From: Verrucomicrobiales bacterium | GTDB taxonomy: Bacteria; Verrucomicrobiota; Verrucomicrobiia; Limisphaerales; UBA9464 | Reading direction: 5' to 3' | DNA: 64,000 bases | Assembly (NCBI GenBank): GCA_027483345.1 | Contig: JAIXUV010000080.1 | Location: 1,679 to 65,678 of the forward strand | Shown: in pieces, positions 27,616 to 47,904 of the stretch | Numbering within the stretch: position 1 is the first letter of the stretch | Layout of the letters: each line of letters begins with the position of its first letter | Notes under the pieces: model-generated | The model's database searches: none | Told to the model about the DNA's origin: nothing | The model's input: the letters and a program-made list of their open reading frames with translations, nothing else | Made by a program: the position numbers and the translations under genes

Positions 27616-29142
27616 CTATGGATTAATGTCGCGAAGCAGCATAGAAAAAAGCGCGGATGCCGCCACACTGTCTGGCTCCAGTTTTGATTCATCCACAAAC
27701 TTTTTCATAGCAAGAGCCGGGTGAACCAGGTTTCTCCATTCCCTTAGTGTATGATTTGGCTCAGGATACGCGCCTTTTATCTTCAGTTTTCTTGCAACAT
27801 TAATGAGATTAAACAGGCTCCACGTCAGTGGATCGGTTTCAATCTCGCGACCAAAGTTCGCCTTCTTTGTCGTATCTGATTCAGCCTTCGCCGCGTTTAC
27901 GGCGGTTTGCAGTTGGCCGGGATTCACACTTAAATGAAGATCTATGAGTAGAGCCTCCATAGCGGAGCCGAATCCAGTCAAAGCAAGCCTATAACTCTCG
28001 TTGCTGTGTGCTTTCACTGCACCGCCGTATGCTGAGAAGCATATCTCTCTCAAGTCCGGATTCTTCATGAAGGCCAGCGCGGTCTTTTCAATTGCGAAGA
28101 CCGATACCTTGCTTGGAGCGACGGTTGCAGCAACTGGAGGTACGAGTTGTGGGCTGGCCTTTGCGACCTGTTGGTAGAGTGAGTTGCGGAATATGAGTTT
28201 TGCATCCTGGCGCTTTGCGAGCCCAATCACTTGCAGAAACGTGTAATCGCTGTCCGCCGGTGCCACGTCAGTCGATCCTTGCTGAACCATCTGCGCGACC
28301 TTTTGGACCAGATTAGTATTCCCAACTATTTTGCTAAATATGCCTTCCAGGTGGGAGCCAATTGAATGCGGAAGGTTCTTTAGCGCTTCCGCGAACGCGA
28401 TCTCAATGGGGAGTTCGCTCTTGCGAAGCGTCTCCTGGAATACAGTTTGAAGAAGGTATGGTTGGCCATTCAAAACATCATGCGCCGCTTTGACGTGGTC
28501 AACCACCGACGGATTAACGGATCTGGCCAACTCGATCGCCTGTTCCAGCGTTATGTCATCAGTGTAAACAGTTTGGCAGACGTTAAATGGTGAATTCCTC
28601 TCATCCACGAGCGTCTCCGGACGGAATGTTCCTGAAAAAACGAAACGAATACGGGACGCGATCGAGTCGGTACTGGCGTCAGCTCTTAAACTCGAGATCT
28701 GACGAATCTGTCCATAGAAGGAGTTTCGATACTGAGGGTTCTCAATACTCCCGGCTTCATCAATGATGATTGCGACCGGTGCTGCTGCTGGCGGGAATGC
28801 CGCTTCCAACCATGCAGCCACTTCGCCCCGATCTTCTATCCTCGGCCGCGGTATGGCCCTCCGGATGTTGCGACCAATTTGGTCGGTGAAGCAGCGTAGC
28901 AAGTCTTCAAATGCTGGACAGGGAGGAAGTCCCTGCAGGTCCACAAGGGCTGCTGTAAATCCGGCCTCCCGTAATCTATTGTTCAGGCGGACAAGACCGG
29001 AACTCTTTCCGTGTTGGCGAGGCCCGAGCAACAGCACCCATCGTCCAGCTGTAATCTCTCCGAAGACCTTTTGTTCGAAGCCCCTTGGAATATAAGCAGC
29101 TGAATCAAGCGGCACGGCTCCTTGGTTGTAGAAATCGCTCAT
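27616..29142 (-). CDS. STAND/AAA_35-like P-loop NTPase with a C-terminal HEPN-like domain
   Basis: Walker A LLGPRQHGKSSGL, Walker B VAIIIDEAGSI, NGQPYLLQTV helix. C-terminal LREWRNLVHP (Rx6H). Last gene of the PT operon, with a 4-nt overlap to the upstream gene. Confidence 0.6.
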   Translation of the reverse strand: MSDFYNQGAVPLDSAAYIPRGFEQKVFGEITAGRWVLLLGPRQHGKSSGLVRLNNRLREAGFTAALVDLQGLPPCPAFEDLLRCFTDQIGRNIRRAIPRPRIEDRGEVAAWLEAAFPPAAAPVAIIIDEAGSIENPQYRNSFYGQIRQISSLRADASTDSIASRIRFVFSGTFRPETLVDERNSPFNVCQTVYTDDITLEQAIELARSVNPSVVDHVKAAHDVLNGQPYLLQTVFQETLRKSELPIEIAFAEALKNLPHSIGSHLEGIFSKIVGNTNLVQKVAQMVQQGSTDVAPADSDYTFLQVIGLAKRQDAKLIFRNSLYQQVAKASPQLVPPVAATVAPSKVSVFAIEKTALAFMKNPDLREICFSAYGGAVKAHSNESYRLALTGFGSAMEALLIDLHLSVNPGQLQTAVNAAKAESDTTKKANFGREIETDPLTWSLFNLINVARKLKIKGAYPEPNHTLREWRNLVHPALAMKKFVDESKLEPDSVAASALFSMLLRDINP

Positions 29143-31769
29143 TTGAGTTTGATGATGTATTGCTCGATTAGCTTTTCCACTGAACCGTAGAACTTTACAG
29201 CGTCAAGAAACCATTCGAGCCTCAACTTGTATCCGGATGCGTTAGAATCAGTGATTCCATACAGCTCGATCATCCGAAGGCCAGCCATAATGTCTGAATC
29301 GGGGCGCGGAATCTCTTTCGATTGCAGGTATTCGCGACAGGACTCCAAGGTTGTTCTGCCTGTTGCGATCAGCATTGTGAGAAGTCGCTCCAATGACGTA
29401 GATTGGCCCCAATAGGTCTCGAGGTAGTGTTCGGCGTATGAATAAGTATCCGCAATTTCGAGGAGGTCGCCAGAAGTCACGGAAGCTCGTGATGCGGGCG
29501 ACCTTTCATTAAGGAGCCCGACGAGACGATCGCCAAGTGTTTGCAATAATTGAGGGTGACCATTAGTCCGATTCCAAGCCACGGAGGCAAACTGATCTTT
29601 GTCGGCGATTGTAATCTGCATAGCCTGTAGGGGCTTCATAAGAAGCTGCTGTGCCGACGCTCGATCAATTTGTCGCAGCATGACGGGGGCGCAGAAATTC
29701 CAGTGGGGAGACTGAGGATCCCACACACGGCTTGAAATCATTCTTTCTCCCGAGAAAACAAATTGTGCTTCACCTTCTTGAGAGACAGTTCTACATGCTC
29801 TAAAGAATGCCTCTGGAACCTCTTCACTCGTGTGCTGTTTGTCCCAATCAAGCAGTTGATCAATTTCGTCAAGAAAGATGACCACTTTTGAACTCGTTGC
29901 TTTCTTAAGCTGCTTCACCAGATCAAACACATTTGCAGGACGAAATTGGTTGGTCGGCTTCACCTGCCAAGCCCTTTGAGCCATCGCAGCAAAATCAGTC
30001 CAATCGCGAACGGTCTGACAGTCGCCGAAGTAGGTCTCAAATCCGGCTTCGCGAAGCCTTGCGGCCGCATGTCGCATCAGAGACGTTTTTCCAATCTTGC
30101 GCCCGCCAAGGAGCGCAATGCTATTTGAAGCGAGCGTCGATACCATGTCGGCCTCTTCCTTTTCGCGACCGTAAAACATCCTTGTGGGCGTTACACTACT
30201 CACAACAAATGGACTGGCCTTCACCAGGTCCGATTGTTCGAGGGCTTGACGTGCCAATATTGCTAGCGGCGGCTCCTTAGATTGCGCAATGGTCAACAGG
30301 AGAGAGGCGTCGAGAACGATTACGCTGGATGTGAGAGATCTCTGCAAGAGCCTAAGTCCGGAAGCGGTTGAGACGTCAGGGGGCGTGGGACAAAGGAGGA
30401 CTGCGATTTTAGATTCAGGGTCTGTGGAAAGGGCGACGCCGGAGATTCTTTTGAATAAATCTGAATTCGCGACAAGCGAGGAAGCCGCGACCACAAGTCG
30501 TTTCGGCAATATATCGCCCCCATCTTTAAGACTCTCCACCGCATAGGTGATGCCATTGTGTTGAGCAATGACTGGCAAGCTGCCACCCGTAGCCATAAAG
30601 AAACACTCTATGGCCTTCTCCGATTGGAAGGCCTTGTTTAATCCGCTTGCCATAGTAACTAGTTCCTTCCTCCTCCAACCGAGGACGACTCCTGTTGGAT
30701 TTAGTGCCAAATCCAATTCTTTGTTCTCGTTCGCATAGGCGGCCAAGGCAATTCTGGCCTGATCGGGCTCATCGGGTAACTCCGTAGTTGAAATGCTTCC
30801 TTTCGAAGTGATTGCAGCGTGAATGAGTTCCTTCAAAGCCCGTCTTTTCCGAGTGGGTGGAGGCGCGGCCGCTAAGCGCAGCATTTCTTGCAGCAATTTT
30901 CCGGATGCGGCTTGTTGGAAGGTCATGCAGCTTGCCACACCAGACATTAGGCTTTGGAGAACAGAATCGCGCGCTCCGCGGACACCCCTACCATCAGCGA
31001 CAAGAATAAGGTTTAGACCATACTCCGCCAAATCTCGCTGCAAAGCTGGATATTCATTTGAGAGTTGAGTCTGCTGCCTTCCGCCGAGAGCTGTTTGAAA
31101 CAGGCTTGTGACTGCAATGCTTTGTCGCGAGCCCACAGCTAACACAGCCTCAACTTTGCCGCGGACGCCAGGAGCCCATTGAGCCTCGGGTTGGATTTCG
31201 ATGACTATATTGTGATTCTGATTGGCCTCAGCGATCGCTTGCTTTAGAACGCTCTGCAAACGTTCTTTAATTGTCGATCCCACACGATATCTTCGATGGC
31301 CTGCGTCCTGACTCAGAAGGGTTATTTTTACAAGGTCTTGAACACTCACTCCCGGTTTAACAATCCTCCCGAAACCCAAGTCAATCAGCAGGGAGGCAAT
31401 ATCTGAATAACGAGATGCCGGGGGTGGGCGGGTTGAATCTGGAAGTTCGCGTCCGTCGCCGAACCCGATTTCTCCCTGTGGAAGTGCCAAAAGAGCGACG
31501 GCCACTTGATACAGGTTTGAGTGTTCGCGGAGACCTTTTTCCAGCGCTTCCTTAGTAAGTACCGTTTCGGAAGTTAGTGATTGGAGAAAGCTTATCGCTC
31601 CTTGATAGCGGGACAAATTCCTTTCTATTTCGGGCCATCCGATATAAGTGCCGATGTCGAAAAGGTCGGGCGTTATCGACTTCCGCAGTTCCTCAATTTG
31701 TTGGGAATTGATCACACTATTTAGATTTGCGTTGAAATTAGGGTGCAGGCTTCGGTAACGCCCCGACAC
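29139..31769 (-). CDS. 876-aa protein: unknown ~530-aa N-terminal region plus a STAND-like P-loop NTPase (paralog of the 508-aa neighbour)
   Basis: Walker A LLGGRKIGKTSLMRH, Walker B VVIFLDEIDQLL, NGHPQLLQTL helix. The N-terminal half has no motif I recognise. 32-nt overlap with the cysteine desulfurase gene. Confidence 0.6.
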   Translation of the reverse strand: MSGRYRSLHPNFNANLNSVINSQQIEELRKSITPDLFDIGTYIGWPEIERNLSRYQGAISFLQSLTSETVLTKEALEKGLREHSNLYQVAVALLALPQGEIGFGDGRELPDSTRPPPASRYSDIASLLIDLGFGRIVKPGVSVQDLVKITLLSQDAGHRRYRVGSTIKERLQSVLKQAIAEANQNHNIVIEIQPEAQWAPGVRGKVEAVLAVGSRQSIAVTSLFQTALGGRQQTQLSNEYPALQRDLAEYGLNLILVADGRGVRGARDSVLQSLMSGVASCMTFQQAASGKLLQEMLRLAAAPPPTRKRRALKELIHAAITSKGSISTTELPDEPDQARIALAAYANENKELDLALNPTGVVLGWRRKELVTMASGLNKAFQSEKAIECFFMATGGSLPVIAQHNGITYAVESLKDGGDILPKRLVVAASSLVANSDLFKRISGVALSTDPESKIAVLLCPTPPDVSTASGLRLLQRSLTSSVIVLDASLLLTIAQSKEPPLAILARQALEQSDLVKASPFVVSSVTPTRMFYGREKEEADMVSTLASNSIALLGGRKIGKTSLMRHAAARLREAGFETYFGDCQTVRDWTDFAAMAQRAWQVKPTNQFRPANVFDLVKQLKKATSSKVVIFLDEIDQLLDWDKQHTSEEVPEAFFRACRTVSQEGEAQFVFSGERMISSRVWDPQSPHWNFCAPVMLRQIDRASAQQLLMKPLQAMQITIADKDQFASVAWNRTNGHPQLLQTLGDRLVGLLNERSPASRASVTSGDLLEIADTYSYAEHYLETYWGQSTSLERLLTMLIATGRTTLESCREYLQSKEIPRPDSDIMAGLRMIELYGITDSNASGYKLRLEWFLDAVKFYGSVEKLIEQYIIKLK

Positions 31770-32898
31770 TTGCGATCGCCTTTCTCGGGAGCGTCTGAAG
31801 CGCCTGCAAAAGGCGCGAAATATCTTCAGCAGTTGAGAATCGCGACAAGCTAACTCTCAATGCACTCAGAGCTATTTCGTGAGCAACATGCATCGCCATT
31901 AGCGTCTTTGATGGGTGAATAGCACCTGAAGAACAAGCTGCACCTGTCCCCACGAGTATTCCGGCGGAGCCAAGAATATCAACAGCATCTCCGGCAACGA
32001 TGCCAGGCAGTGAAAAGAATGTAGTGTTTGGTAGACGCGGGGCCCGAACAGAATGGATAATCACATCCGGGAATATATCTATTAACCGTTGTTCGAACTC
32101 GTTTCGCAAACTCTGAATGTGCTCAGACATGTCTGCGCGGGCTTCGTGTGCTGCCTGGGCCAACCCCGCAAGTCCAGCGGTATTGAGTGTTCCTGGCCTA
32201 AGGCCTTGCTGTTGTCCTCCGCCTAGCATCATCGGGGCGATGTCGATTCCGGGGCGCACATAAATCCCTCCCACCCCCTTTGGTGCGTGACATTTATGAC
32301 CTGAGAATGAAAGCAGGTCAATATCGTGCCATTTACCCTGTAAATCTATGGCGTTCTTTCCTACCGCCTGGGTGGCATCTGTGTGGAAAAGCGCGGCTGG
32401 ACATCGCTCGCGGATGATTCGGCCAATTTCCTGAATTGGCTGAAGAACTCCTGTCTCGTTATTTGCGGCGATTACCGAAACGAAGAGTGTGTCGTCTCGC
32501 AGCGCATTGCTAAGAGCATCCAATCGGATAACACCATCTTGATCCACCGGCACTTCGATCAGGTCCAGACCACCTTTGGCTAACTCACGCGCAGGCTCGG
32601 TGATCGAGGGGTGTTCAATTGCCGAAATGATAACTCGCCCCGTTCCCTTCCCCCTGCAGGACGACATCAAGACCCAGTTGTTTGACTCTGTTGCGCCGGA
32701 CGTAAAAGCGAAGCAATTCGGCTCCTCGGCGTTCAATAAGTGTGCCAACGCTCTCGCGGCATCCACTCTTGGTTTGTCTGCTCCTGTAAATGGCGCGGAT
32801 GAGGCGTTGAAATAGCAATCCCCTAAATACGGCAAAACCGCATCAATTACCGTTTGTGACGGCCGAGTCGTAGCGTTGTTGTCGAGATAAATCAGCAT
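31738..32898 (-). CDS. class-V aminotransferase / cysteine desulfurase (SspA/DndA/IscS-like)
   Basis: MLIYLDNNATTRP start, PLP-lysine motif SFSGHKCHAPKG, 386 aa. Confidence 0.9.
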   Translation of the reverse strand: MLIYLDNNATTRPSQTVIDAVLPYLGDCYFNASSAPFTGADKPRVDAARALAHLLNAEEPNCFAFTSGATESNNWVLMSSCRGKGTGRVIISAIEHPSITEPARELAKGGLDLIEVPVDQDGVIRLDALSNALRDDTLFVSVIAANNETGVLQPIQEIGRIIRERCPAALFHTDATQAVGKNAIDLQGKWHDIDLLSFSGHKCHAPKGVGGIYVRPGIDIAPMMLGGGQQQGLRPGTLNTAGLAGLAQAAHEARADMSEHIQSLRNEFEQRLIDIFPDVIIHSVRAPRLPNTTFFSLPGIVAGDAVDILGSAGILVGTGAACSSGAIHPSKTLMAMHVAHEIALSALRVSLSRFSTAEDISRLLQALQTLPRKAIASVGALPKPAP

Positions 32899-32904: not shown

Positions 32905-33840
32905 TTATTCTCGAGCTGGGGCGAGGAACACTTGTTCCGTGTGCCATTTTGTGTAGTCAACCTTTGGCATGTAGCTATCCCGATTTGGTTTCAACAAAGG
33001 CTTTTTGTGGAAACGTCCAAGATTTTCCACGAACCCTTCCGATCCATACGCCTTCTCTGAAATCAATACACATCCCGCTTGATTAATTGTAAACGCCCCA
33101 CGGTCAAACAGCTTGTGGTGCAAAGAACATAGTGCAAGACCGTTTTCGCGAATGTCCGGTCCTGCTGCTTGATGCCATTTAATGTGAGCGGCTTCCAGTG
33201 CAATTGGAACATGTCCGATCCGAACATTAAATCCGCAAACGGCGCAGCGATACTCATAAGCAGACAAAACCATTTCCCTGAACTCCGGATCGCGGTTGTT
33301 GCTTCGTTGCATGCCACTTGGAATTACCAAGCCCAAGGAGAGCAGTATATCCTCATGCAATGTCTCCGGGAAATGAGATTGCAGCAGTGTGTCAATAACC
33401 TTCGCGCGCAATTCATCGTTCTGCCTTAGTTCATTGTAGACGTCTTCTTGAAATCCTCCCTGTGCTTTCGAGGAGAGGAGCGCGCGGCGTGAGGGATAAC
33501 CATTCCCGGGTCTCAGAGTCGACAATGCGGAACGGACTTCCCAGATGCCCTTCTCGCTTTGCAAGGCCCAAAACGGGTATTCCGGATGACATACTTTGCG
33601 TGGCGGGCCAAACTCCGTAAGCAGCCGACGAAGGGGATTCTGGATCTTGTCAAATGGAACTAGTCGCTGGTTCTCGGTGAAAAGCTCTGAGATTGCCAGC
33701 AGGCATAATAGAGGCTTGTGAGGGGCACGTTGGCCAGCTTTGCGCCAAACGGAAAGGGAGCGAAAGCGATGCGCAACATCTTCCTCTTTCAAGAGAGACG
33801 AAACTTCAAGGGTAGGACGTTGTCGCGCTTGGTTACGCAT
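32905..33840 (-). CDS. SBD-HNH endonuclease (ScoMcrA-type phosphorothioate-DNA-binding domain plus HNH)
   Basis: N-terminal RAPHKPLLCLLAISEL and HPEYPFWAL (Y-P-x-x-A sulfur-pocket motif). C-terminal HNH CAVCGF...LEAAHIKWH...NGLALCSLHHKLFD. Start set at the ATG at 33840, which overlaps the dptH-like stop (ATGCGTAA). Confidence 0.7.
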   Translation of the reverse strand: MRNQARQRPTLEVSSLLKEEDVAHRFRSLSVWRKAGQRAPHKPLLCLLAISELFTENQRLVPFDKIQNPLRRLLTEFGPPRKVCHPEYPFWALQSEKGIWEVRSALSTLRPGNGYPSRRALLSSKAQGGFQEDVYNELRQNDELRAKVIDTLLQSHFPETLHEDILLSLGLVIPSGMQRSNNRDPEFREMVLSAYEYRCAVCGFNVRIGHVPIALEAAHIKWHQAAGPDIRENGLALCSLHHKLFDRGAFTINQAGCVLISEKAYGSEGFVENLGRFHKKPLLKPNRDSYMPKVDYTKWHTEQVFLAPARE

Positions 33841-36800
33841 CGGTTTTGCTCGCGGGCCTTCCGTGTTGCAGACGTATGAGGCGCACAATCTGAGGAACCG
33901 TGGTTTCGATATCAATAAAGGGCACTTGGGCGAAGATCGGATCAGCCGCATCTCCCGTCTTGGCGAGCATGTGACCTCGTCCGAGCAACCTCTCCGCACC
34001 TGAGTTCTTGCTCCCCATGGCGATCTCCGCGGTTCCAGCATTATCGACCTTGAGGATTAGCCGGTTCCCGAGCTGGGAACGGAGTTGCATCGGCATCACG
34101 TCCTTGTCCGGTCTCTGGGCGGCGAATAGCAGAAAAATTCCGGCGGCTCGCGCCTTCACACTCAGGCGTCCGACGATGTTGGGTACCGAGTCTTTGTAGT
34201 CCTCGGTCTGCATCCAGTCAGCGAACTCGTCGTGGATGATCCAGAGTGTCGGCAGCGGCTTGCCAGTCGCGCGACGGTAGCCGTGGATGTTGGCGACTTT
34301 GGCCTGCTTGAAGAGTTCGTAGCGCGCATTCATCTCCTCGACTAGTCCTCCGAGGACCTGCACAGCCGTTGCGGGATCATCAATGATGCCACCTGAACCG
34401 ACTTCCACGTGTGGTAACTCGTCGAGCGGACGGTAATCCACACCATACTTCGGGTCGATGAGGTAAATATGCGCCTCCTCCGGTGAGCGGGTAGCGGCGA
34501 TGCTCAAGATGAGGTTTTGCATCAGCACGGATTTTCCGCTTCCCGTGATCCCCGCGATGAGAGTGTGGGGTTGGTTGAGCGGGTCCAGTAACAATGGTTT
34601 GCCATCCTCTTCGCGGATACCGACGCATAGCTTTTCGCCAAGCATACCCTCGCTGTAGCTACGAAGATAGGCGAGGAGCACGGGTTCTGTGTGCAGGACT
34701 TGCCGATTCGGACGCTCCACGGCGATGGAAACTCGTCCCGATTCGGGAGTGGTGTTGATGATCTTGATTCCATCAGACGTGTATATTTCATCCACGCGTG
34801 ACTCCACCGCTTGAACGGTGAGATCCTTTGATCCCTGCAACTTAATGATGCCGGCATTGGGGGTAAGAATCGGCGCCAGACCTTCGATAAGCTTGGCGGG
34901 AAGTCCTCGTGTGACTAACGCCTGCCGGAGTTGCACAGTAGTCGCCTCAAGCCATGACCGGCCTTCTTCTTCCGTGCTCTGAAACATCGCTGCGCGCGAT
35001 TCGAGCAAGGCAATCAGTGGTGCCGACGATGCACGGGCAGTGCTGCCATGCGTTGCGCTGGAATCGGCGACTTGCTTCTCAACCGAACCGGGGACTTGCA
35101 CACCTGACGCCGCGCTCGGAGGCGTGACTAGCGCGGGCGGTTCCGGGTTAAGCGCTGCACCGGATTCACCCTGCGTGTCATCGGGCGGATTCTTTTGTTC
35201 ACTCTTCTTTGACGGTGCCTTGCCCTCAGCCTTGCTGGCCAAGTGGTAGAGCTTTGATTTTCCGAACGCAGGATGGCCATTGCGCAGACGTAGCTCGGCG
35301 GTCGCCTTGTGGTTGGCGTCGTGATAGTGAATCAGGAGTTCGCGAACATGCCCTGGCCCGAAAGTCTCCTGAAGCGAATCGAGGCCAGCCCTTCCTTTTC
35401 CAGCTGGGATTCCCTTAACCGTGGAAACTTGCGCAGTGAGATCGTGCGGCTCGTTCACGAAGACATGGGAGTATCCCCAAATGCGGACGGTGCATTGACG
35501 CTGCCGGATCGCTCGACGCCAAGCAACGGTATCCAAGGGCGGCTGACCGGGCGCGACGACTGTTTGGGAAACAAGAAGGTCAGACAGTCGAGCCAGCCAG
35601 ATGTCTTGGTCGATGGTGCGAGCCTCCCCGTCCATCGCCTCGGTCAACTGAGAGAGTGTGTCCATCAGTTGCTTGGCCGAAGTGCTTGCCGCTCCACCTA
35701 GCGCGTCATGCGTGACGAACTTCGCCTCCGTCACCACAACGTCGAGGTGCTTGGAGCCGTCGGCATTCGTCTTCGGTGCGAGCACGAGCAGATCAGCGAT
35801 GTTAGCCCCTTCTTTCTTGCCTAGCCATTGGCTGTAATCGTCAAGAAAGCACCAAGCGATTGGTCGACCCGCGCCCAACTCCGATTGGACGAGGTAGCGA
35901 GAGAGCACCATGCCGAGTAGCTCGTTGGTGTTGTTCGCTCGGCGGGCTGCCTTGAGAACGAGGCCGCCAGAAATCTTGTTGGCATCCTCCATGAAATGCT
36001 TGCAGAGACGGTCGATGACATCCACAGGTGTATCCGAGGCCAACAACGCCTTAAGCTTCTCCTTGAGCGTGTTCACCAGCAGAGTCTCGCGGGCATCCGA
36101 GGAAATGATCAGGTTCCGTCCGTGCGTCGCGGACTGGACGTAGCGAATGACTTTAACGTGTTGTGCCTCCAAAAGCTTTCGGTCGAGCAGTTCGTCCTGA
36201 TTTACCACCCAATTCGCAAGTTCGTGTGTCTCCCGGAAAATGCGCTCAACCCTCTGATCGTCGAAGTCGAGACACCGCATGAGCACGGGACACTTGCCAA
36301 CCACCCATGCATCATCTGCGCCGGGCGCGCACAGGACTGCAAGGGAGTAGAGGTAAGCCCATCCGGTTTCCGTCTGAGCGGGGCAGGCGAGTTGGAGGCG
36401 GACTTTCCTATCGCCCTCACTCACCGGAAGGCGACGGCTCCATTGGTGAGGTTGGAGTTCTTGCGGAGTAGCGGTCTCCCTCGAGAGCCACTCCCAAACG
36501 GGTTTCGCCTCACGGGAAATCAAATCGCGGCAGTATGCAATATCAACCGGCTGCGAACGGCCTTCGCGGCGCAATCGGTTGGCCGCGGTGATGTTCACGC
36601 GGACCTTGGCGAGGAAATCACCGGAGGCTTCTGTCGGATCCGCCTCGGTATCCACGCCTCGCGCCACAAGATCGCGATAAATCTGCCGCAAGTGATCTTC
36701 ATCCCGATGCATGAGCAGCACCTGGCAGGTGATCTTGTCATCCTCCCGTTTCGCATTGATGCGGTTGATACTCTCGACTACCGCGGTCGGTAGATCTGGA

Positions 36801-39289: not shown

Positions 39290-40851
39290 TCGCGTGAATC
39301 CATCGGGTTGATGACGTAGGTGCAGGCGTCGCTCATGCGGTGCGCCAGACCCATGCCGATGAGGTGCTGAGCAAGCCTGTCTCTGTTCTTTTTGAAATCA
39401 GTTTCGTCGAAGAGGTAATTGAGCACCTCTGCCTTCGCTTCCGTCGGGCCAATCACGATCCGATAGCGTTTGTGGATGTGATTCAAGAAAGCGCTCTCCT
39501 CCAGCGGTGCATTCACGTTCGCAAGCACCAGTGCGCGAAGGAGGTCATCCGTGGGCGCGTAACGATAGCGGTTAGTTCCTCGTTTCGAGGCCAAGCCACA
39601 TCCAGTGGCGAGCGCGGTCAGACCATCAGCCGTCCCATTACGATATAACCGATCTGCGAAGCTGTAGAATTTCTGCGTGAGCGTCTTAGCATCGGGCGCT
39701 TCGAGACGATCCTTCTTGAAGGCGCAAGTGCGAACGAGGTGGTCCGCCAAGTAGTCCTTCTTCGCCAAATCATCTAGCGCGGGATCGGCAAGCGTCTTGT
39801 GGAGTTCGGGGTCGGAGAAGGCCGACTCGTCGATGAACTTGCGGACAGCCATGGCACCAAGACTGTCGTTCTGGAGGTATGAGCCAACTGCCGCTTTCCT
39901 TACGAGATCAGATTTTGGCGCGAGAATTTCACAGATGATCGAGGGCAATTGCGCGTCACCCAGCAAATAGTTCGCAGTCTCGATTCCGTAGAGATAGAGA
40001 TGCAAACCGAGTAACGGCTGTAGATATTGAAAGGCGTCTTGGTCCGGAAGATTCAAACTCAAGATCGCAGCAACGTCATTTGCCATCCGGTCGAATGCTG
40101 GGTGCCTTTTGTAAGGAAGGTATGTCCCTCCCTTCAGGTCACCGCGATCAGGTTCGGGCGACGAGATTAATCGCAGGACCAGTTTGTTGCGTGAAGTATT
40201 CGGGTCGAACGAGGGCGCCAGACTTTCCCGAATCCTAGTGCGTAGTGGTTCAGAAGCGCGCGAAAGCATCAGATACGCGAGCTCACCTGTCCGCGTGAAT
40301 ACGCGCCTTGTTCTTTCAAAGCCTTCGCCCTTTTCCAAAATGGCTTCGTAGAGTGCTGCTGGCCCGATTGGGAAAACGAACTGTGTTGTCCAACTGCGCT
40401 CGCTACCTGGATCTACCGTGATACGGCGCAGTAGCCGGACCACGCTGACCAACTCAGCAAACGTGTCGAAGCGATCGCGAAGATACGAGAAATCTGCCGT
40501 CAGGTGTTCTCCAAGCGAAGCGCCTTCCTTCATTACTCGCAACCAAGTGCTCCAACCCTCCTCGTCGCTCCCTTGAGCATTTCGGAGGATCTCCTCCATC
40601 CGAGGATTGTTGAAAAGCAGGTTACGGAGTTGCAGAGATCGATTGGCAACGTATTCGGGGTTCTCTCCGGGGCGGGTTTCGGAGAGCAGCTTCCCTTGAC
40701 GAAACATCCCCTCCGCCATGCCGAGAAATTCGAGCATCAATGCTGAGAACGGCTGGCGCTCCAAACGGTGGCCCCAAATCGCTTCGGCGATCCATGCCTC
40801 ATTTCTGTCCTTCGAGCCAAAGAACTCCTCGGTGTTTTCTGGAGAAATCAT
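39286..40851 (-). CDS. dptG: DptG/DndG-like protein (middle gene of the trio)
   Basis: 521 aa, no enzymatic motif recognised. The call rests on size, position and ATGA coupling on both sides. Confidence 0.45.
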   Translation of the reverse strand: MISPENTEEFFGSKDRNEAWIAEAIWGHRLERQPFSALMLEFLGMAEGMFRQGKLLSETRPGENPEYVANRSLQLRNLLFNNPRMEEILRNAQGSDEEGWSTWLRVMKEGASLGEHLTADFSYLRDRFDTFAELVSVVRLLRRITVDPGSERSWTTQFVFPIGPAALYEAILEKGEGFERTRRVFTRTGELAYLMLSRASEPLRTRIRESLAPSFDPNTSRNKLVLRLISSPEPDRGDLKGGTYLPYKRHPAFDRMANDVAAILSLNLPDQDAFQYLQPLLGLHLYLYGIETANYLLGDAQLPSIICEILAPKSDLVRKAAVGSYLQNDSLGAMAVRKFIDESAFSDPELHKTLADPALDDLAKKDYLADHLVRTCAFKKDRLEAPDAKTLTQKFYSFADRLYRNGTADGLTALATGCGLASKRGTNRYRYAPTDDLLRALVLANVNAPLEESAFLNHIHKRYRIVIGPTEAKAEVLNYLFDETDFKKNRDRLAQHLIGMGLAHRMSDACTYVINPMDSRE

Positions 40852-42686
40852 TGTTCTGCGAGGTGGATAGGGAGTCGTTGAATCGTGCCAGTCCCGTGAA
40901 CTTCGATCAGGTGCAACGATCGTGAGCTTGCTTTGAGTCGAAGGTCACGGAGGCAGCGTTGTTTGAGCGACATGAAGTCGGCGCAAGATTCCCGCGAAAA
41001 GCTCGACGGCATGGCGCCATCCGCCACGCGGCAGAGGAACTCAAAGCGGGGAAGCGTGAGATGGAATCGAAATTCCCTGCCGTTGGTGCGGAGCAACGCT
41101 TCGGGGACACTGCCGGACTCTTTACGAAGGATCTCCAGGCCGGGCGGGTCCGAATCCAATTCGAGTTGTGCGAGGTGAATGTCACTCACTGGCGACGTCG
41201 TCAGGTCGAGCCCCGTGGCGAGATAGACTTCGTTGGCATTCTCCGCGAGCAGCAGACCGGTCCAGATCCGGTTCAGCCCCGATGCAAGTTTGCGGAGATG
41301 CAGACGGGCTGGTGTTTTTCCTTCCTCAAGCGGTTTGAGGATTTCTTCGAGGTATTCCCGCGCGTGATGGAAGACGGTGATTTTCCACAGCAGATATTTC
41401 TGAAGCTGCGCTTGGGACGCTTGAAGGAAAACTCGGCGTCGCTCAGCGGCAAGCTCGGCCAAAAAGAAGGACATTTCTTCTTCGTCGTTGATGTCGCCGC
41501 GGATGTAGCGCTTGAGCAGGGCATCGAAATCCGGGTTTCGCTGACTAAAGGTGTCAGGCAAGACCAGTTCGTCATGCGCCGTTTTGAGTTCTCCGTCTCT
41601 CGTTCCGAAGATGAGGAGTTCGTCGAGATCATTGGTCGTCTCATCTCCGACGTGGAGCATGGAGAGGAAGCGGTACACTTCACGCTTCCGCCGGTTGCTG
41701 ACGGTGAGGTTTTCTCCAAAAAGTGTCCGATGCAGAGCGGCTTTATGAGCTGTCCTGGACTTCCCGATTGTATTGGCTTCCGCTCCCGGGCGAATGACTC
41801 GGTCTCTGGCGTCGGGATGTCCTAGCAATGCGTTGGAAAGCAAGCAAAGCACCCCTCGCGTTGGCAAATGATGGCCCGTCACATCCGCAATGCGCGCCAG
41901 CATGATGAGCTTGGCCCTCACTTCGGGAGTATTGAGAGCGCGATAATTCCTCGAAAGCGACGAAGACTCCGAGAAGAGGGGCTTGTCGCTCTCTTCTGTG
42001 AAACAGACCCATTCCGGACGGTCGAGAACGGCACCAAGGCAGAGGCTCATGATCTGTTCGCTTGGGACCATGCTCAGATTGATGAGTCGAAGGCGATTGC
42101 CGCTGTCCCTTTCGCAGCGCGCGTGAAGGCCAATCAAATTTTTCTGTAGCCTGCGAACGAGTTCGGGCGTGTCCGTCGGCAGGGCCCGAAACAACTCATG
42201 CATCTGGCCGTCGTTGACGGCTAGGACAAAGAACTCTTCGCTTTCGGCGAACGCAGACTCCGCCATCCTGGCGAGCACGGCGACGTGTTCCGGGCTGAGG
42301 TGACCGTTCGTCTTCTTCCGCCATGCGGTGACATCGTAGATCAAGGTAATCGTGCGCCGTCCTGCGTGAGTTTCGACGGCGACGATTTCAATCCCGCTGT
42401 GTCCCTCGGCGGACTTCCCGGTCAACGCTTGTACCAACTCAAAGCAGAGCGAGGTTTTCCCCTCTCCAGCGGTACCCGTCAGCACTACATTGCGAAATGA
42501 GCCTTTGGAGACTGGAAAACAGTCGAGGATGAGCTGTAGCGCTGGATGATTGAAGGCGAGCTTGGGAACGCCATAATGAGCGGCCAATTTACCGACATGC
42601 TCCGCTTGCATAGCCTCGTTGTCCGCGACAGGACCGTAGGCCCTTAGCAACCGAATCCATTTCTCTCCTTTGGTGAGCGCTGACAT
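40848..42686 (-). CDS. dptF: DptF/DndF-like P-loop ATPase
   Basis: Walker A VVLTGTAGEGKTSLCF about 100 aa from the N-terminus. Start set at the ATG at 42686 (MSALTKGEKW), 13 nt after the sspD-like stop. Confidence 0.5.
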   Translation of the reverse strand: MSALTKGEKWIRLLRAYGPVADNEAMQAEHVGKLAAHYGVPKLAFNHPALQLILDCFPVSKGSFRNVVLTGTAGEGKTSLCFELVQALTGKSAEGHSGIEIVAVETHAGRRTITLIYDVTAWRKKTNGHLSPEHVAVLARMAESAFAESEEFFVLAVNDGQMHELFRALPTDTPELVRRLQKNLIGLHARCERDSGNRLRLINLSMVPSEQIMSLCLGAVLDRPEWVCFTEESDKPLFSESSSLSRNYRALNTPEVRAKLIMLARIADVTGHHLPTRGVLCLLSNALLGHPDARDRVIRPGAEANTIGKSRTAHKAALHRTLFGENLTVSNRRKREVYRFLSMLHVGDETTNDLDELLIFGTRDGELKTAHDELVLPDTFSQRNPDFDALLKRYIRGDINDEEEMSFFLAELAAERRRVFLQASQAQLQKYLLWKITVFHHAREYLEEILKPLEEGKTPARLHLRKLASGLNRIWTGLLLAENANEVYLATGLDLTTSPVSDIHLAQLELDSDPPGLEILRKESGSVPEALLRTNGREFRFHLTLPRFEFLCRVADGAMPSSFSRESCADFMSLKQRCLRDLRLKASSRSLHLIEVHGTGTIQRLPIHLAEQ

Positions 42687-42699: not shown

Positions 42700-43551
42700 T
42701 CAGAGTTGGCAGAGCAGGCATCCTTCGCGCCGCCGTGGCGCTGCTTCGAGACCACCAAGAGTCTGAGCCAGCGAACGGTTCGGCTGGCGTTTTGCAAGCC
42801 GTTCTTGAGTCTTGCGCCAATTCTCTTCGATTTGAGTCATACGAGTGGGTTGCTCCAGGTCTGCGAGTGACTCGTCGCCGCACCAGTAAAACACATTGCC
42901 ATTCACGCGGTTTGGCTTCTCGTAAGCCTTGGCCTGCTCGTAGTATTCCGGGTAGCGCTGCTTCAGGCGAACCCACTCGATCTTCTGCTGGTAAAAGCAA
43001 AAGAAGCAGCCGCTTCGAGTGCGCCCCCACTCTGTGTAGGGAGGCATACCGAGACCCGAATTTTCAAGGATTCGCTGAACGCCCTCGTAGTCAATCCCGT
43101 CTTCTCGAAACGGAAATGCCGCACGAATGTTTGGCTTGTGACTGATGTAACCGACCCGCTCCTCATCCGCTCGAATGCCTACGTAGTTAATGCAAAAGCC
43201 GCTACCAATATAATCCTCAAAGGGCTTTAGTTTCATCAACTCGGTGCACCATCTCCGATGACTGGAGGGGAGCATCCCACCTTTCATGCGCAGCAAATGA
43301 TCAAACGTAGTTCCGAAAGTCGTTCGGACGATCTTGCGGCCCAGATACCCTTCCAAGCGCTCTAGATATTCGTAGGTGTCTGGGAGTTCCTTCGCAGTAT
43401 CATGGAAGATGTATTCCATGTTCGTCACACGATCGCGTAGATAGACTGCGAGCGCCGCGCTGTCCTTGCCTCCGGAAAGACTCAAGACATGACGAACCAT
43501 GGCGGGGTCTTCCGGCCATTTATTGTCCCGAACGAGAGCTTGAGTCGTCAT
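42700..43551 (-). CDS. sspD: PAPS-reductase/PP-loop ATP pyrophosphatase, short form (SspD-like rather than DndC-like)
   Basis: PP-loop VLSLSGGKDSAALAVYL, C-terminal cysteine motif GCFFCFYQ. At 283 aa it is much shorter than the ~500-aa size I recall for DndC. Confidence 0.75.
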   Translation of the reverse strand: MTTQALVRDNKWPEDPAMVRHVLSLSGGKDSAALAVYLRDRVTNMEYIFHDTAKELPDTYEYLERLEGYLGRKIVRTTFGTTFDHLLRMKGGMLPSSHRRWCTELMKLKPFEDYIGSGFCINYVGIRADEERVGYISHKPNIRAAFPFREDGIDYEGVQRILENSGLGMPPYTEWGRTRSGCFFCFYQQKIEWVRLKQRYPEYYEQAKAYEKPNRVNGNVFYWCGDESLADLEQPTRMTQIEENWRKTQERLAKRQPNRSLAQTLGGLEAAPRRREGCLLCQL

Positions 43552-43554
43552 GTG

Positions 43555-46500
43555 TCAGGGTTTCTTGGATTTCTCTACAGCGTTGAGTTCAGTCCAGATC
43601 GCACGCATGGCGGCGGCGAGGCCGTGACGCCCGTGCTTGGACAAGAGCTGCCGAATTTCCGTCTCGACGGCACCGATGCGGCTTTCATCCATTCCATTCC
43701 AATCCACAAGGTCACCAACTTCAGTTCCATCGCTTTTGGTGATGGCAATGCGACAGGCGTGGCCATTGAGCTTTCTGGTCGTGCCGATGAACGTCATCTC
43801 AGTCCGCTTAAACCGACCGGCGGCAATTTCGAGTTGGTGGTGAAACTCCGTCTCGTCGTTGTCCAACCAGCGCTCTGGCGATTTTCGCGCAAGGAGATTC
43901 GCCACGGATTCAACCCAGGCCCGGTCATCGAGCACGGTGTCAGCGAGTCGCAGGGCAAAGGCTTTGAGCGCCGGTTCGGTTACGGCAGCGGCCAGTTGGG
44001 CGGCGCGGTCGGCGATGTTGCTCCTTGCCGCAGGCGTCTTCGCCTCCACATAGAAGGCAGCACAGATCGCGTTGCGCAGGCGTTCGATAAGCTTCGGATA
44101 AGCCGTGCGAATCTCGTGCAGTGCAGTGCGCAAGCGGGCGGCCAGTTCGTCTGGCGTCTTGAGCCCTTCTCCGCCGATAGGTGGGAGGCCACATGCTTCA
44201 GGCAATGCAGTGAAGACCAGTTTCACCGGTTCTCGGCCGTCGAGAAGCGCACGCCGGACGGCCACGGCAGCAGCCGGAAGGTTGTTCGTCTTGCGGCAGT
44301 ATTCGGGAACTTCCCGGCCGATGAAGACAGCCAACGGACGCACGAGATCAATCAGATCCGTTTTGGTGGCATCGCGCGCGTCGATTTGAAGCAAGCGCAG
44401 CAGTTTCGAGAAAACATCAGCACGGACGCCGCTCAGCTCGCAGTATTGGAGGGAAAAGAACTCAGGCTCTTTGGTGATCCGCAGGAAGACGTCGCCGCCA
44501 ACCTCGTGAAGATATGTGCCATCCTCGTAGAGAGCGACGCGCTGGTGGTGTGTCGCAAGATAAATGGCGAGGATAAACGGCTGGAGACCTTCGCGGACTC
44601 CGAATGATGGCATCGAGAGAGCGCGGAGGACCTCGGGAACTGGAACCAAGGCGTCGATGCCTTTCGCCTTTAGCGTATCCGTGATGAGAGCAAGCGACGG
44701 GAGCAAGTTGCACCGATCCTCGCCAGGACTGGGGGCTCGAAACATCCAACCGGACTCGGTCTCTACGTGGAATCCGCCCTGCTTAAGGATAGAGAGATAG
44801 AGCGCCATCTCGGCCGGGCGCTTCGTGTCGTCCATGCCCAGATACGGTTTGTCGGACGCGGTCGCCATGGCCTCGGCCAACTTTGTTCGAGCACTAACCG
44901 CAGCGCTGCTTGGCGAACGGCGATTGATGAGTTCGTTCAAAACTTTCGGAGCTTCCGAATAAATTCGTCGGCACCTGTCCCCAAGGAACGTTAGGAGTTC
45001 TCGCCCGGTGCCCAATTCCTTTGGGCTGCTAGTCCCGTTGTAAAACCACTGGATGCTCTTCCCCGTGGGGATGGCAAGATTATCTAATCCGCCGAGACGA
45101 ATACGGAGGTTCCGTTTGGCCTGATTAATTTGGCGGGAGACCTCTTCGCGAGCATACCGATCCCCCGAGAGTTGCGGAGTGTTCCTCATCACCCACTCCC
45201 ACGCTACCAAGTCGGTAAGCGCAGTTGCAGCCTGGTCAGGCGGTGCGACGACAGCCACGTAAAGCCCCTTGGCGAGGCTGGCCTGCCGTTCGAACAAGAC
45301 CTCTCTGGCTAAGCGCTCCTGTGCTCGGTCAGCCGGCAGGAGGACCCGTAGGTTCAAATCAGCCCCTTCGCCGTCGAGTTGGGGCTGGGTGGCGAGCAGA
45401 TCGCTCAGGCAACTTGCCGGGACGAGTTTTACCTCGGCATACCGCAGCGTGCCGGTCCGCGCGTAGTAGGCCCGCGGAACAAGATGCTCAGAAATAACAT
45501 GGTCGCAGAGGCGCTTGGTGCCGTCACCTTTGCTGGAGGTCGCTTCGACTGCCTTGGCGAAAAGCTCATCGAGGTTCACGGATGTGTGCGGCCAGAGACA
45601 CAGACCTTTGACGGTGCCGCGCTCGTAAATCACACCGCGAGCCCGCAGTGACTTAATCGCGGAACCGACAGCACTCGGGGCACCGCCTACTGATGCGCTA
45701 ACGATCTCCTCCGTAGCGGGGAGGTCAGGAGCATCCAGAAGGCTGAGCATCGCTACCGTCTTGAGCACCGCTTGCTCCTCGGGTGTTTCGCATGGAGTAG
45801 ATGCCAAGACTGACTCGACGACTCCCCAATGCGTGTGCGAGTGCCCCGTCGAAATTGTTGGGAGGAGGTTCAACCGGACAAAATCGAAGAGGTGATGAAT
45901 TCGGTAGTGTCCGGCGATTTCGGCGTGATGCGCAGCGTGCTGCTGAAGCGCCATCGGTTCGGCTGACGAAACGAAGCTAAACAGTGACCGCTCGTTCTGG
46001 CCAAACTTGCGAATAGTCCGTACAAGCACCGGGAGCGTTGCCGGGTGCAACGGGAAAAGTTTCGGCCCGAGGTTGGAGAGGGAAGCGGGGGCAGTTGGTC
46101 CGTAGATTCCGGTCTTGAGAGCAATCACCATGGCCGCGTTCGACTCTTTTATCAGGGCGTCGGGCAGTCGGTGAGTTTCAACGTTAAGCGTTGCGGCGAC
46201 TAACGCAGTGACCTGCTCGATCGGCTGTGCGTAGACTATTTCTTCGAAGCGCCCCGCGACCTTGTCCCATTCGCGGCGTGCCGCCGAATCCAACCCTGCG
46301 GCATATGCGGCAACGCCTTGATGTAGGGTGGCGACAATCACAAAGGCCTTGTCTCCGCTGCGGGCGGCTTCCTCAGCGAGTCGCTGAAGAAGAAAAACAT
46401 CTTCGGACTCAGGGTTCCGCGCGGCGTATTCCAAGTTCTTGCCAAGCTCATCAAGAATGAGGAGTAGTCCCGCATGGCGCTGGATCTTCGCTATATCAAC

Positions 46501-46926
46501 GCACGCCCGGACTGCTTGTAGTACCTCTTCGGTGTTTGGTCGGCCACGACTACTGTCCCATTTCAAGCCAATCGCCCGAAAAACCGTCACGCCGAGCGGC
46601 TCGCTGTCGCCAGTTGCCAATACTGCGCCAAATGTTTTCTGGCCGATAAACCGCCGGAGATCTTTTGGGAGTTCATTCCTAGAGCCTTTCGCAATACGCG
46701 CCAACGCGAGGGCGAAGTCAGTTTTACCCGAACCGTAGTCGCCCGCGATGCGCCACGCACGCTGCGTGGAATTTATCTGAAAACCTGCGGTAATCCGTTC
46801 AATTGCTTGCTGTGCTACGGGTGTGAGGATGTACCCCAGCGAAGAAGTGGGGTCCTTGATGTCGCGCTCAAGGTGAACCGACCGCATGAAGCGTGGGTGA
46901 ATTCGGAGCAATGAGGAAATGTGCAT
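43555..46926 (-). CDS. sspC: large P-loop ATPase (SspC-like)
   Basis: Walker A GDYGSGKTDFALAL and Walker B-like LLLILDELGKN. 1123 aa, sandwiched between the DUF4007 and PAPS-reductase genes with 21-nt and 3-nt gaps. Confidence 0.55.
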   Translation of the reverse strand: MHISSLLRIHPRFMRSVHLERDIKDPTSSLGYILTPVAQQAIERITAGFQINSTQRAWRIAGDYGSGKTDFALALARIAKGSRNELPKDLRRFIGQKTFGAVLATGDSEPLGVTVFRAIGLKWDSSRGRPNTEEVLQAVRACVDIAKIQRHAGLLLILDELGKNLEYAARNPESEDVFLLQRLAEEAARSGDKAFVIVATLHQGVAAYAAGLDSAARREWDKVAGRFEEIVYAQPIEQVTALVAATLNVETHRLPDALIKESNAAMVIALKTGIYGPTAPASLSNLGPKLFPLHPATLPVLVRTIRKFGQNERSLFSFVSSAEPMALQQHAAHHAEIAGHYRIHHLFDFVRLNLLPTISTGHSHTHWGVVESVLASTPCETPEEQAVLKTVAMLSLLDAPDLPATEEIVSASVGGAPSAVGSAIKSLRARGVIYERGTVKGLCLWPHTSVNLDELFAKAVEATSSKGDGTKRLCDHVISEHLVPRAYYARTGTLRYAEVKLVPASCLSDLLATQPQLDGEGADLNLRVLLPADRAQERLAREVLFERQASLAKGLYVAVVAPPDQAATALTDLVAWEWVMRNTPQLSGDRYAREEVSRQINQAKRNLRIRLGGLDNLAIPTGKSIQWFYNGTSSPKELGTGRELLTFLGDRCRRIYSEAPKVLNELINRRSPSSAAVSARTKLAEAMATASDKPYLGMDDTKRPAEMALYLSILKQGGFHVETESGWMFRAPSPGEDRCNLLPSLALITDTLKAKGIDALVPVPEVLRALSMPSFGVREGLQPFILAIYLATHHQRVALYEDGTYLHEVGGDVFLRITKEPEFFSLQYCELSGVRADVFSKLLRLLQIDARDATKTDLIDLVRPLAVFIGREVPEYCRKTNNLPAAAVAVRRALLDGREPVKLVFTALPEACGLPPIGGEGLKTPDELAARLRTALHEIRTAYPKLIERLRNAICAAFYVEAKTPAARSNIADRAAQLAAAVTEPALKAFALRLADTVLDDRAWVESVANLLARKSPERWLDNDETEFHHQLEIAAGRFKRTEMTFIGTTRKLNGHACRIAITKSDGTEVGDLVDWNGMDESRIGAVETEIRQLLSKHGRHGLAAAMRAIWTELNAVEKSKKP

Positions 46927-46947: not shown

Positions 46948-47904
46948 CTAGAGGAATCGTGGTTTCTCGTAAGCGCCATGCAGATCGGCGTGGCCATCGC
47001 TTCGGCGAAGCCTTTGGAGTTGGCGCAGATTTGACGATTCGGTGACCTGAAAGATATGTGGCTGTGTCTGCGCTAAGTTGGACACGCGTTGCAGAATCTC
47101 GCTTTCTGCAATTCTCAGGATGCGTCCGGGACTGTGGCGCCCCGCGACCAATTCCCGCAACGCAACGGTCTGCTCGGAAGGAAAAGCCCGATTCCACCAG
47201 TCGTGAACAAAGAATGCGAAAAGCTGCTGCGGGATGGCTGTCTTCGGGCCGGCATCGAACGCATAGAGCGTCTCCCATTTCCCGGCTGTATTTTGCCTTT
47301 CACCAGCTTCTTGAATCAATCCAAGAACGGACAGGGCGCAGTCGAGGTGATCTTCTCCTCGCGTCCCACGCGGCGGGCGGTAGCTGTGAAGAAAGACTTC
47401 CCAATGCTGTTTGAGCGTGATGAGCGAAGCAGCCCTTTGATTTTGCTCGGCCTCCTTTCGGAATGCTTCGACCACGGCGCTGCTACTGAATTCTATGGTC
47501 GGCCAGCGATTGAATAAGCACTCCCACGCGAAAAAGGGCGCACTTCTGTTCGTGCTGATGAGCCAGTGGAGCAGCCAATTGCTGGAGTGATCTTCGAGGT
47601 ACGGATCGAGACCGGCATTGGGGGCGAAAACCAATTCGCCTATAGGGCTCAAGACCCACCGGGTGTCCTCCTTCGAGGCGATCTGGAACGCCTCAATCCA
47701 GCATCGGAGCGCCTCTACCATGTTTTTACCAAGCCCGAGGGAGACGATGCCCTCATCAATGTTCGTCAGCGGATCCCGACCAGAACCAATTTCTCGAATC
47801 GCCTTCGGCAGCCACGCAATACGGAGGGGGAACGTTTGGTGCCCACTGAAGCGAAAGGCGGGAGCCTGAACCTGGGGCTGATTAATTGTGGACATCAAGT
47901 TCAC
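46948..47904 (-). CDS. sspB: DUF4007 family protein (SspB-like nickase)
   Basis: FRFSGHQTFPLRIAWLPKAI matches the DUF4007 N-terminal signature as I recall it. The start is GTG at 47904 or ATG at 47895. Confidence 0.65.
   Translation of the reverse strand: MNLMSTINQPQVQAPAFRFSGHQTFPLRIAWLPKAIREIGSGRDPLTNIDEGIVSLGLGKNMVEALRCWIEAFQIASKEDTRWVLSPIGELVFAPNAGLDPYLEDHSSNWLLHWLISTNRSAPFFAWECLFNRWPTIEFSSSAVVEAFRKEAEQNQRAASLITLKQHWEVFLHSYRPPRGTRGEDHLDCALSVLGLIQEAGERQNTAGKWETLYAFDAGPKTAIPQQLFAFFVHDWWNRAFPSEQTVALRELVAGRHSPGRILRIAESEILQRVSNLAQTQPHIFQVTESSNLRQLQRLRRSDGHADLHGAYEKPRFL

Follow-up and report, generated by a model that had tools for sequence, protein, structure and literature searches.

Probable SspBCD-SspFGH-SspA phosphorothioate system with accessory defence genes on a predicted conjugative element of a Verrucomicrobiales bacterium

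The stretch of DNA analyzed here, referred to as the window, comprises 64,000 nucleotides (nt) from a Verrucomicrobiales bacterium (GenBank assembly GCA_027483345.1, contig JAIXUV010000080.1, positions 1,679 to 65,678), in which ten consecutive minus-strand genes run from 47904 to 27616. As judged from profile scans and from comparison with related loci, this array probably represents an SspBCD-SspFGH-SspA phosphorothioate (PT) modification-restriction system of canonical composition, with its genes in the order usual for the clade. It would be borne on a conjugative element, and accessory defence genes appear to have been added to it at the sspH/sspA end. The SspBCD-SspFGH identity is ordinary, and the novelty resides in two additions: a gene for a nuclease combining a sulfur-binding domain (SBD) with an HNH domain (SBD-HNH), which is lodged inside the operon, and a cassette of two ATPase genes behind it.

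The ten proteins were scanned against the PADLOC, NCBIfam and Pfam profile libraries. The array begins with sspB (46948..47904, minus strand, as are the nine genes that follow), which codes for a DUF4007 protein of 318 amino acids (aa) counted from a GTG codon, an alternative ATG being codon 4; it matches PADLOC SspB at 363.9 bits (E=1e-109) and Pfam DUF4007 at 194 bits, and its assignment also draws on colinearity in 27 loci. The product of sspC (43555..46926) is a 1123-aa P-loop ATPase of the BrxC/PglY-like type, matching PADLOC SspC at 1324 bits (residues 13-1045 against model positions 1-1050 of 1053), and that of sspD (42700..43551) is a 283-aa PP-loop, PAPS-reductase-like ATP pyrophosphatase, which scores 362.7 bits with PADLOC SspD, is also recognized by Pfam PAPS_reduct and reaches merely E~6e-5 with DndC models. 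Three restriction genes come next. The 612-aa Walker-A ATPase SspF (40848..42686) matches its PADLOC model at 1028.8 bits (E=0, model 1-572 of 572), the 521-aa SspG (39286..40851) does so end to end at 517.4 bits (E=1e-155), and the 1818-aa SspH (33833..39289) does so at 1765 bits (E=0, residues 7-1806 against model positions 4-1766 of 1766) and carries a C-terminal FtsK/SpoIIIE translocase ATPase, found as Pfam FtsK_SpoIIIE at residues 1554-1727. Further along, sspA (31738..32898) codes for a 386-aa class-V pyridoxal phosphate-dependent cysteine desulfurase (Pfam Aminotran_5, 209 bits), for which the PADLOC SspA and DndA models, at 341.9 and 340.9 bits, are indistinguishable by score. The window therefore holds the cysteine desulfurase (sulfur donor), the SspBCD cluster and the adjacent SspFGH genes that an SspABCD-SspFGH system requires. 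An earlier account of the same DNA, made from its letters and reading frames (the sequence-only reading), had already taken the DUF4007, ATPase and short PAPS-reductase genes for SspB/C/D, which the PADLOC scores bear out (364, 1324 and 363 bits in round figures); its description of the last four genes as an SBD-HNH protein, a cysteine desulfurase and two further P-loop proteins agrees with the profile scans.

The same reading, on the other hand, had assigned the FGH trio to the Dnd type (DptFGH), such that an Ssp-type single-strand PT writer would feed a Dnd-type DptF/G/H restriction complex. The sole support for such a hybrid in the proteins themselves is a superficial likeness of size and order (a P-loop protein, a mid-size protein and one of ~1700-1800 aa with a translocase-like C-terminus), and the paper that described SspFGH itself remarks on its resemblance to DndFGH (PMC8092258). 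Yet the three proteins match the SspF, SspG and SspH models over their full length with very high scores, sspBCD precede the same FGH genes in dozens of loci, and no Dpt/DndFGH model matched the 612-, 521- and 1818-aa proteins in PADLOC at E<=10 or in NCBIfam at E<=0.001, where TIGR03236, TIGR03237 and TIGR03238 were not above cut-off. Both libraries, which presumably contain the Dpt models, did return other Dnd models for window proteins (DndA, DndC and TIGR03235). That the F, G and H proteins score as the published SspFGH is an outcome which the sequence-only reading had itself named as telling against it. The Dnd-type identity was rejected on these permissive-threshold scans, which gave matches to Ssp and none to Dpt, and the hybrid is exceedingly improbable; the array is, by its profile matches, the known SspBCD-SspFGH-SspA system. 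By PADLOC, no DndB, DndD or DndE match is found among the ten operon proteins, as the earlier account had stated of its reading frames, and SspE models (PADLOC) and GmrSD_N/GmrSD_C (Pfam) likewise gave zero matches among them. A side observation concerns the C-terminus of SspG, which has a weak, remote NCBIfam match to MADS7 (6.6e-7), and the SspH ATPase, which matches PADLOC mad8 (3e-18); this suggests a possible remote kinship of SspFGH with the methylation-associated defence system MADS.

The SspABCD-SspFGH defence system has been published and is reported from 196 strains; in it, IscS-SspBCD writes PT in the form of C-ps-CA (Wang et al. 2021, PMC8092258). SspFGH is toxic to cells that lack PT, rendering them TUNEL-positive and filamentous, and the system restricts T1, T4, JMPW2 and EEP; between SspFGH and DndFGH there is no significant sequence identity (PMC8092258). 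The PT-sensing nuclease SspE and SspFGH occur together in 36 genomes, and since PT occupies only some of its sites, self/non-self discrimination was flagged as an open matter (PMC8092258). The window resembles the SspABCD-SspFGH system of Vibrio anguillarum FF-93 (PMC8092258) in having all seven components, with full-length model matches, in the location of sspFGH immediately after sspBCD and in the FtsK-like C-terminus of SspH. It differs in its Verrucomicrobiota host, in that a desulfurase gene stands in cis behind sspH, whereas iscS was used to reconstitute the FF-93 system, in that SBD-HNH lies between sspH and sspA, in the addition of the two-ATPase cassette and of a TIGR04096 gene, and in the location of the array on a predicted conjugative element. 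With DndABCDE-DndFGH (DptFGH) the window shares the pairing of a PT writer with a restriction module by which unmodified DNA is damaged and whose three proteins include one with a Walker-A motif and a large one resembling translocases, but it is without matches to DptF, DptG, DptH, DndB, DndD and DndE, and its SspD is marginally DndC-like. As in SspABCD-SspE, where SspE is a PT-sensing nickase, a PT-reading nuclease is co-encoded with an Ssp writer; unlike SspE, that nuclease is an SBD-HNH protein which has no NTPase domain and in which no SspE homology is detected.

If the core works like the homologous systems of V. anguillarum and V. cyclitrophicus, SspA would strip sulfur from cysteine, and SspD (PP-loop), SspC (ATPase) and SspB (DUF4007) would install single-strand PT, which is C-ps-CA in the characterized systems. 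SspB was reportedly described as a nickase by Xiong et al. in 2020, who are also said to have detailed the roles of SspC and SspD. SspF, SspG and the FtsK-like translocase SspH would then damage DNA that is without PT. Both activities, PT writing and damage of PT-less DNA, are thus ascribed to this core by homology.

The layout of the array is compact. According to the map of open reading frames (ORFs) and to a direct inspection of where they start, stop and join, the ten ORFs contain zero internal stops, and the first junctions are gaps of 21, 3 and 13 nt followed by two ATGA overlaps; the remaining ones, as the ORFs are annotated, are an 8-nt ATGCGTAA overlap, a 6-nt gap and overlaps of 32 and 4 nt. 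Every junction that the sequence-only reading had listed for its ten tightly packed ORFs was reproduced, and all the motifs it had quoted were located in the translations. One start is probably to be revised: the 876-aa protein encoded after sspA (p876) has 11 database homologues, each of which begins ~18 codons downstream, and the window ORF has a GTG as its codon 19, so that the true start would lie at 31715 (858 aa), leaving a 22-nt gap after the desulfurase gene instead of the 32-nt overlap. That the array forms a single expression unit is inferred from gene spacing alone. Scans for sigma-70 promoters and terminators yielded counts at or below the shuffled expectation and were uninformative, and the promoters of the host may not be sigma-70-like. 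The PT-associated unit appears to extend past 27616, into a convergent gene on the plus strand (25146-27419) which was not listed in the earlier account and which codes for a 757-aa protein matching NCBIfam TIGR04096 (dnd_rel_methyl, phosphorothioation-associated putative methyltransferase) at 614.9 bits against a cut-off of 150. This flanking protein matched no PADLOC model.

The gene order was compared by means of an SspH search, taking one genome per species, which returned at least 193 relatives; 80 of their loci were analyzed by mapping the ten window proteins onto each. Among these, the nearest SspH is that of Verrucomicrobia bacterium IMCC26134 (91% identity), followed at 72-87% by those of other Verrucomicrobiota, Acidobacteriota and metagenome-assembled genomes of Betaproteobacteria. 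The B-C-D-F-G-H-A order is fully colinear in 27 of the 80, which span Verrucomicrobiota, Acidobacteriota, Alphaproteobacteria, Cyanobacteria, Chloroflexota and others, and the desulfurase directly follows sspH in 10 further loci, which brings the total to 37. A second arrangement, seen in 25 loci and mostly in Betaproteobacteria, has FGH followed by inverted BCD without sspA. On the strength of the 27 colinear loci and the 10 more with the desulfurase after sspH, a terminal rather than a leading sspA is the normal state for the clade and involves no rewiring; the expectation in the sequence-only reading that SspA normally leads does not hold here.

The right-hand end of the array has a different history from that of sspB-sspH. 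In comparison with IMCC26134, sspB-sspH are 80-94% identical while sspA is merely 59% identical. A metagenomic locus, L081, shows another pattern, with identities of 81% for SBD-HNH, 79% for sspA, 88% for p876 and 79% for p508 (the 508-aa protein encoded last), and of 74-79% for sspC-sspH. The identities of SBD-HNH and sspA co-vary over loci (81/79, 65/59, 62/42 and 57/52) as SspH remains steady at 74-80%, and on the ERZ1426816 contig p876 and p508 are 91% and 95% identical to those of the window, with SBD-HNH at 62%. The four right-hand genes have a GC content of 0.50-0.53 vs 0.54-0.585 in sspB-sspH, and SspH, by its identity profile, passes from the IMCC26134 type to that of L081 within its last ~20 residues. 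These differences in identity, GC content and SspH partner argue that recombination at the 3' end of sspH brought in the right-hand block.

The SBD-HNH gene (32905..33840) codes for 311 aa and overlaps the stop of sspH by 8 nt. Its product matches NCBIfam NF045808 (PT-DNA_restrict, "phosphorothioated DNA-binding restriction endonuclease") at 329 bits vs a cut-off of 180 and Pfam HNH_2 at 44.6 bits, and its homologues bear PF26340 (DNA-SBD_ScoMcrA). The N-terminal domain aligns to the solved SBD of ScoMcrA (5ZMM/5ZMO; E=6e-9 with 5ZMO), where the pocket segments read ALHRPVLLL vs APHKPLLCL and RYPFWAL vs EYPFWAL in ScoMcrA and the window respectively; H-R has thus become H-K and Y-P-F-W-A is retained. 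In an alignment of 25 sequences the pocket residues P40, H41 and P89 are invariant and K42 is conserved in at least 90%, the pocket tyrosine is replaced (by A, F or L) in three members, and the HNH/zinc residues C199, H219, N233, C238 and H242 are invariant. Because both the sulfur pocket and the HNH/zinc residues are conserved, the protein looks like an active PT-reading nuclease, which would bind the PT sulfur and cut nearby. It has the two-domain architecture, sulfur-pocket residues and HNH motif of ScoMcrA, SprMcrA and EcoWI (PMC7461809, PMC7470945); these stand alone, whereas the sub-clade of the window appears translationally coupled inside a PT-writer/restriction operon. Lutz et al. expected PT-dependent nucleases to avoid PT writers, and the <3.6% which they found near dnd-type clusters were left unexplained (PMC7461809). 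No description of an SBD-HNH protein inside an Ssp operon was found in a literature search of incomplete coverage.

The last two genes of the array form the ATPase cassette. In p876 (29139..31769), residues 530-756 match Pfam AAA_22, ATPase_2 and nSTAND1 (27.5 bits), and residues 28-287 show a weak match to DpnII (PF04556), which is stronger in homologues; the N-terminal nuclease is accordingly a putative one, assigned by Pfam PF04556 only. An AlphaFold2 (AF2) model of mean confidence (pLDDT) 71.7 matches ORC/Cdc6, the archaeal ATPase 2fna and Avs4 (Foldseek 8e-7). Fold support was also sought for the DpnII-like N-terminus, and none was obtained; the model is mediocre there, and the PDB search returned mainly matches to the ATPase half. 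The second protein, p508 (27616..29142), matches Pfam AAA_35 at 77.9 bits, and its AF2 model (pLDDT 89.6) matches 2fna, 2qen, ORC/Cdc6 and Avs3. It ends in a conserved helical domain in which R467, R470, N471, H474 and P475 are invariant among 27 homologues (residues 467-475), a pattern resembling the Rx4-6H motif of HEPN domains. The HEPN idea was not upheld: a Pfam scan restricted to this domain, at E<=10, returned no relevant match, and a Foldseek search with the whole model gave only the ATPase core.

The p876 protein would accordingly join a DpnII-like nuclease domain to an AAA+ ATPase resembling the signal transduction ATPases with numerous domains (STAND), with p508 as a second ORC/Cdc6-like ATPase. 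Both share an AAA+ plus winged-helix fold with STAND/Avs and ORC/Cdc6-like NTPases and with PDC-S27 and PDC-S01, and the variable N-terminal effector, here DpnII-like or TIGR04096-like, would follow the logic of STAND/Avs NTPases; unlike Avs, they constitute a two-gene pair and not a single giant protein, with no long C-terminal sensor repeat. An exhaustive phmmer search returned 1998 relatives, 401 of them at E<1e-30, with ~50 full-length representatives at 50% identity, and many further ones carry the same ATPase half on different N-termini. Of the 44 other loci that have a p508 homologue, 43 have it directly 3' of a p876 homologue, the exception (L131) being a 1.2-kb fragment; the overlap between the two is usually 4 nt, and p876 comes first in all loci long enough to show both. 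PADLOC gave marginal matches to PDC-S27 and PDC-S01 (E 2e-5 or weaker) and no named system was found in the searched libraries, nor did a literature search of incomplete coverage yield a description of AAA_35 defence systems. Two of the loci, L081 (16256-16642) and the SRR26290402 contig, have a small LigD_N (3'-phosphoesterase-like) gene after the p508 homologue, which is absent from the window.

The SBD-HNH protein is most likely a type IV arm directed at invaders whose DNA bears double-stranded PT of the Dnd type, foreign to the host. Its presence would be tolerated, as hemi-modified C-ps-CA would be a poor or unrecognized substrate, since the characterized SBD-HNH enzymes do not read this modification: Hga, a PD-(D/E)XK and non-HNH protein, is the only enzyme reported to do so, and its restriction is 10-fold for C-ps-CA vs 1000-fold for double-strand PT (PMC10602919). 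The alternative holds that SBD-HNH is an integral Ssp component which reads the Ssp-written PT of the host itself, either as an effector of the SspE kind, with a nuclease that is licensed when self PT is bound, or as a PT-recognition/nuclease subunit that marks self DNA for SspFGH. Several observations weigh towards it. Among the closest homologues in metagenome assemblies, which are 57-81% identical, the insertion between sspH and sspA recurs in seven out of seven contexts (L081, SRR26290402, L084/85, L086, L087/88, ERZ1426816 and the fragments L082/83), and over this whole range of identity the start of SBD-HNH overlaps the stop of sspH by 4-8 nt. SBD-HNH-like genes have been placed independently just upstream of sspB in two of the 80 SspH-anchored loci (L002 and L031), which may point to a functional connection with the PT of the host. 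Homologues at ~48-49% identity occur in varied contexts: one (L090) is alone in a restriction-modification (RM) island, one at ~48% (L089, 9257-10909) follows a 200-aa PAPS-reductase gene, and another at ~48% (L091, 6233-10873) follows DUF4007, an SspC-like fragment and an AAA_15 ATPase, neighbours which may be degenerate or alternative remnants of PT writers beside PT readers. SspE provides a precedent for a PT-sensing nuclease with SspABCD, also alongside SspFGH. Against an integral role, the experimentally validated SspFGH system functions without SBD-HNH, and the sspH/sspA slot lacks it in all 80 species-representative loci, including those of the closest SspH relatives (81-91%), so that it must be optional; it is patchy on the SspH tree and is swapped as a block with sspA. 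Moreover, the characterized SBD-HNH enzymes cut PT-DNA and would be autoimmune if C-ps-CA were their target, and the single SBD known to read C-ps-CA (that of Hga) is not HNH-linked. By these comparisons SBD-HNH is an optional, exchangeable accessory, and an integral role is the less likely of the two, kept alive as a serious minority possibility by the tight and conserved coupling to sspH.

The wider alternative, in which all eleven genes would form one PT-centred machine with p876/p508 and the TIGR04096 protein as PT-dependent restriction or regulatory parts of Ssp, is improbable, though it too has evidence in its favour. All readable pairs of the DpnII type at 55% identity or more adjoin Ssp genes, in three arrangements: after SBD-HNH-sspA (the window, L081, SRR26290402 and ERZ1426816), immediately behind sspA, which they overlap by 4 nt (L006, L092/L105 and L093/L094/L097), and divergent from sspB (JGI 3300059473). 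TIGR04096 homologues adjoin Ssp genes in L081, L002, L093/94/97, L038 (as sspC-TIGR04096-sspD), L075, L047, L057 and L005, in several phyla, and an 891-aa protein (L108, 7329-10004; also L107 and L125) fuses an N-terminal TIGR04096 part (271 bits) to a p876-type ATPase half. This fusion is the one piece of evidence linking the cassette to PT-associated proteins, and it speaks against a full independence of the cassette from PT. The fusion itself, however, is followed by a p508 homologue in a non-Ssp context, beside EmrAB efflux genes (L108), and the more distant pairs also have non-Ssp settings. Two at 53-54% identity (L098 and L114) are not beside Ssp loci, a metagenome scan with a p508 profile found pairs at 34-54% without Ssp genes where the flanks are visible, and six at 34-47% (L099, L100, L103, L104, L111 and L124) have no Ssp gene within 2.5-10 kb. 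A Pfam scan of the neighbours in L100, L103, L104, L111 and L124 identified PutA, a GH127 glycosidase, a metallopeptidase-like gene and an unrelated C5-methylase/XamI RM system, and no consistent methylase partner for the stand-alone pairs. Among the SspH-anchored loci only one of 80 has the pair and six have TIGR04096, and the shuffling of the ATPase module onto many N-termini is typical of autonomous STAND-type defence proteins. Since distant pairs stand without Ssp genes, p876/p508 is best read from its distribution as an autonomous two-gene candidate defence cassette, one branch of which rides with Ssp loci, and in the window it is probably an independent STAND-like sensor-effector unit in the same island. 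The sequence-only reading had presented the ten genes as one undescribed unit; the unit with its extra components was indeed not found described in a literature search of incomplete coverage, while the two ATPases are to be set apart from the Ssp genes as this cassette. The convergent TIGR04096 gene, for which the same search yielded no functional account, is a recurrent neighbour of PT loci and a third accessory. A combined version, in which SBD-HNH reads the operon's own PT as a sensor/effector or as a self-recognition subunit of SspFGH and p876/p508 is a further PT-connected arm, is likewise a serious minority possibility.

Downstream of sspA, loci differ in content as if this were a slot for variable cargo. 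In L084 (12114-13843), p876/p508 are replaced after sspA by a 165-aa gene and a 411-aa protein with a DndB domain (PF14072), and AbiJ-like genes come after these.

The flanks of the array point to a mobile element. Upstream of sspB are an HTH_17 (AlpA/excisionase-type) gene (48121-48474, minus strand), 216 nt from the sspB start, which could be a regulator or a part of the mobile element, and a DUF488 gene (48562-49017, minus strand). Profile scans place a T4 coupling protein (TrwB/TraG-like; 52861-54510) and a TrwC relaxase/helicase (54561-57020) further on the same side, both on the minus strand. The opposite flank, on the plus strand, contains a second, weak TrwC-like ORF (22185-23174), a C-5 cytosine DNA methylase (23303-24613; PF00145, 84 bits), near which no obvious cognate nuclease was identified and which may be an orphan or an element-borne protective methylase, and a 1643-aa fusion (11257-16188) of a MADS2-like S-adenosylmethionine-dependent methyltransferase (residues 165-350) with an SNF2/ResIII helicase having a DrmD/BrxH-like C-terminus. 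This fusion might add a second defence gene to the element or serve in anti-restriction. GC content falls from 0.60-0.66 to 0.51-0.59 over the locus, a search for tRNA genes and integration sites found no tRNA within the window, and the same association of Ssp genes with TrwC/TrwB genes is seen in L092. By this gene content the array is the predicted cargo of a conjugative or mobilizable element.

The present work assigns an ordinary PT defence core to this element and draws attention to the accessories that travel with it. The sub-clade of SBD-HNH nucleases inside the SspBCD-FGH-A operon would offer a clean experimental system for the coexistence of PT reader and PT writer, in which the contribution of the reader to self/non-self discrimination may be asked. 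If SBD-HNH does read the host's own PT, it would give a sequence-defined handle on how self is told from non-self when the sites are only partly modified. The p876/p508 pair, with its ~50 full-length clusters at 50% identity and its swappable N-termini, is a compact candidate defence pair which merits testing on its own.

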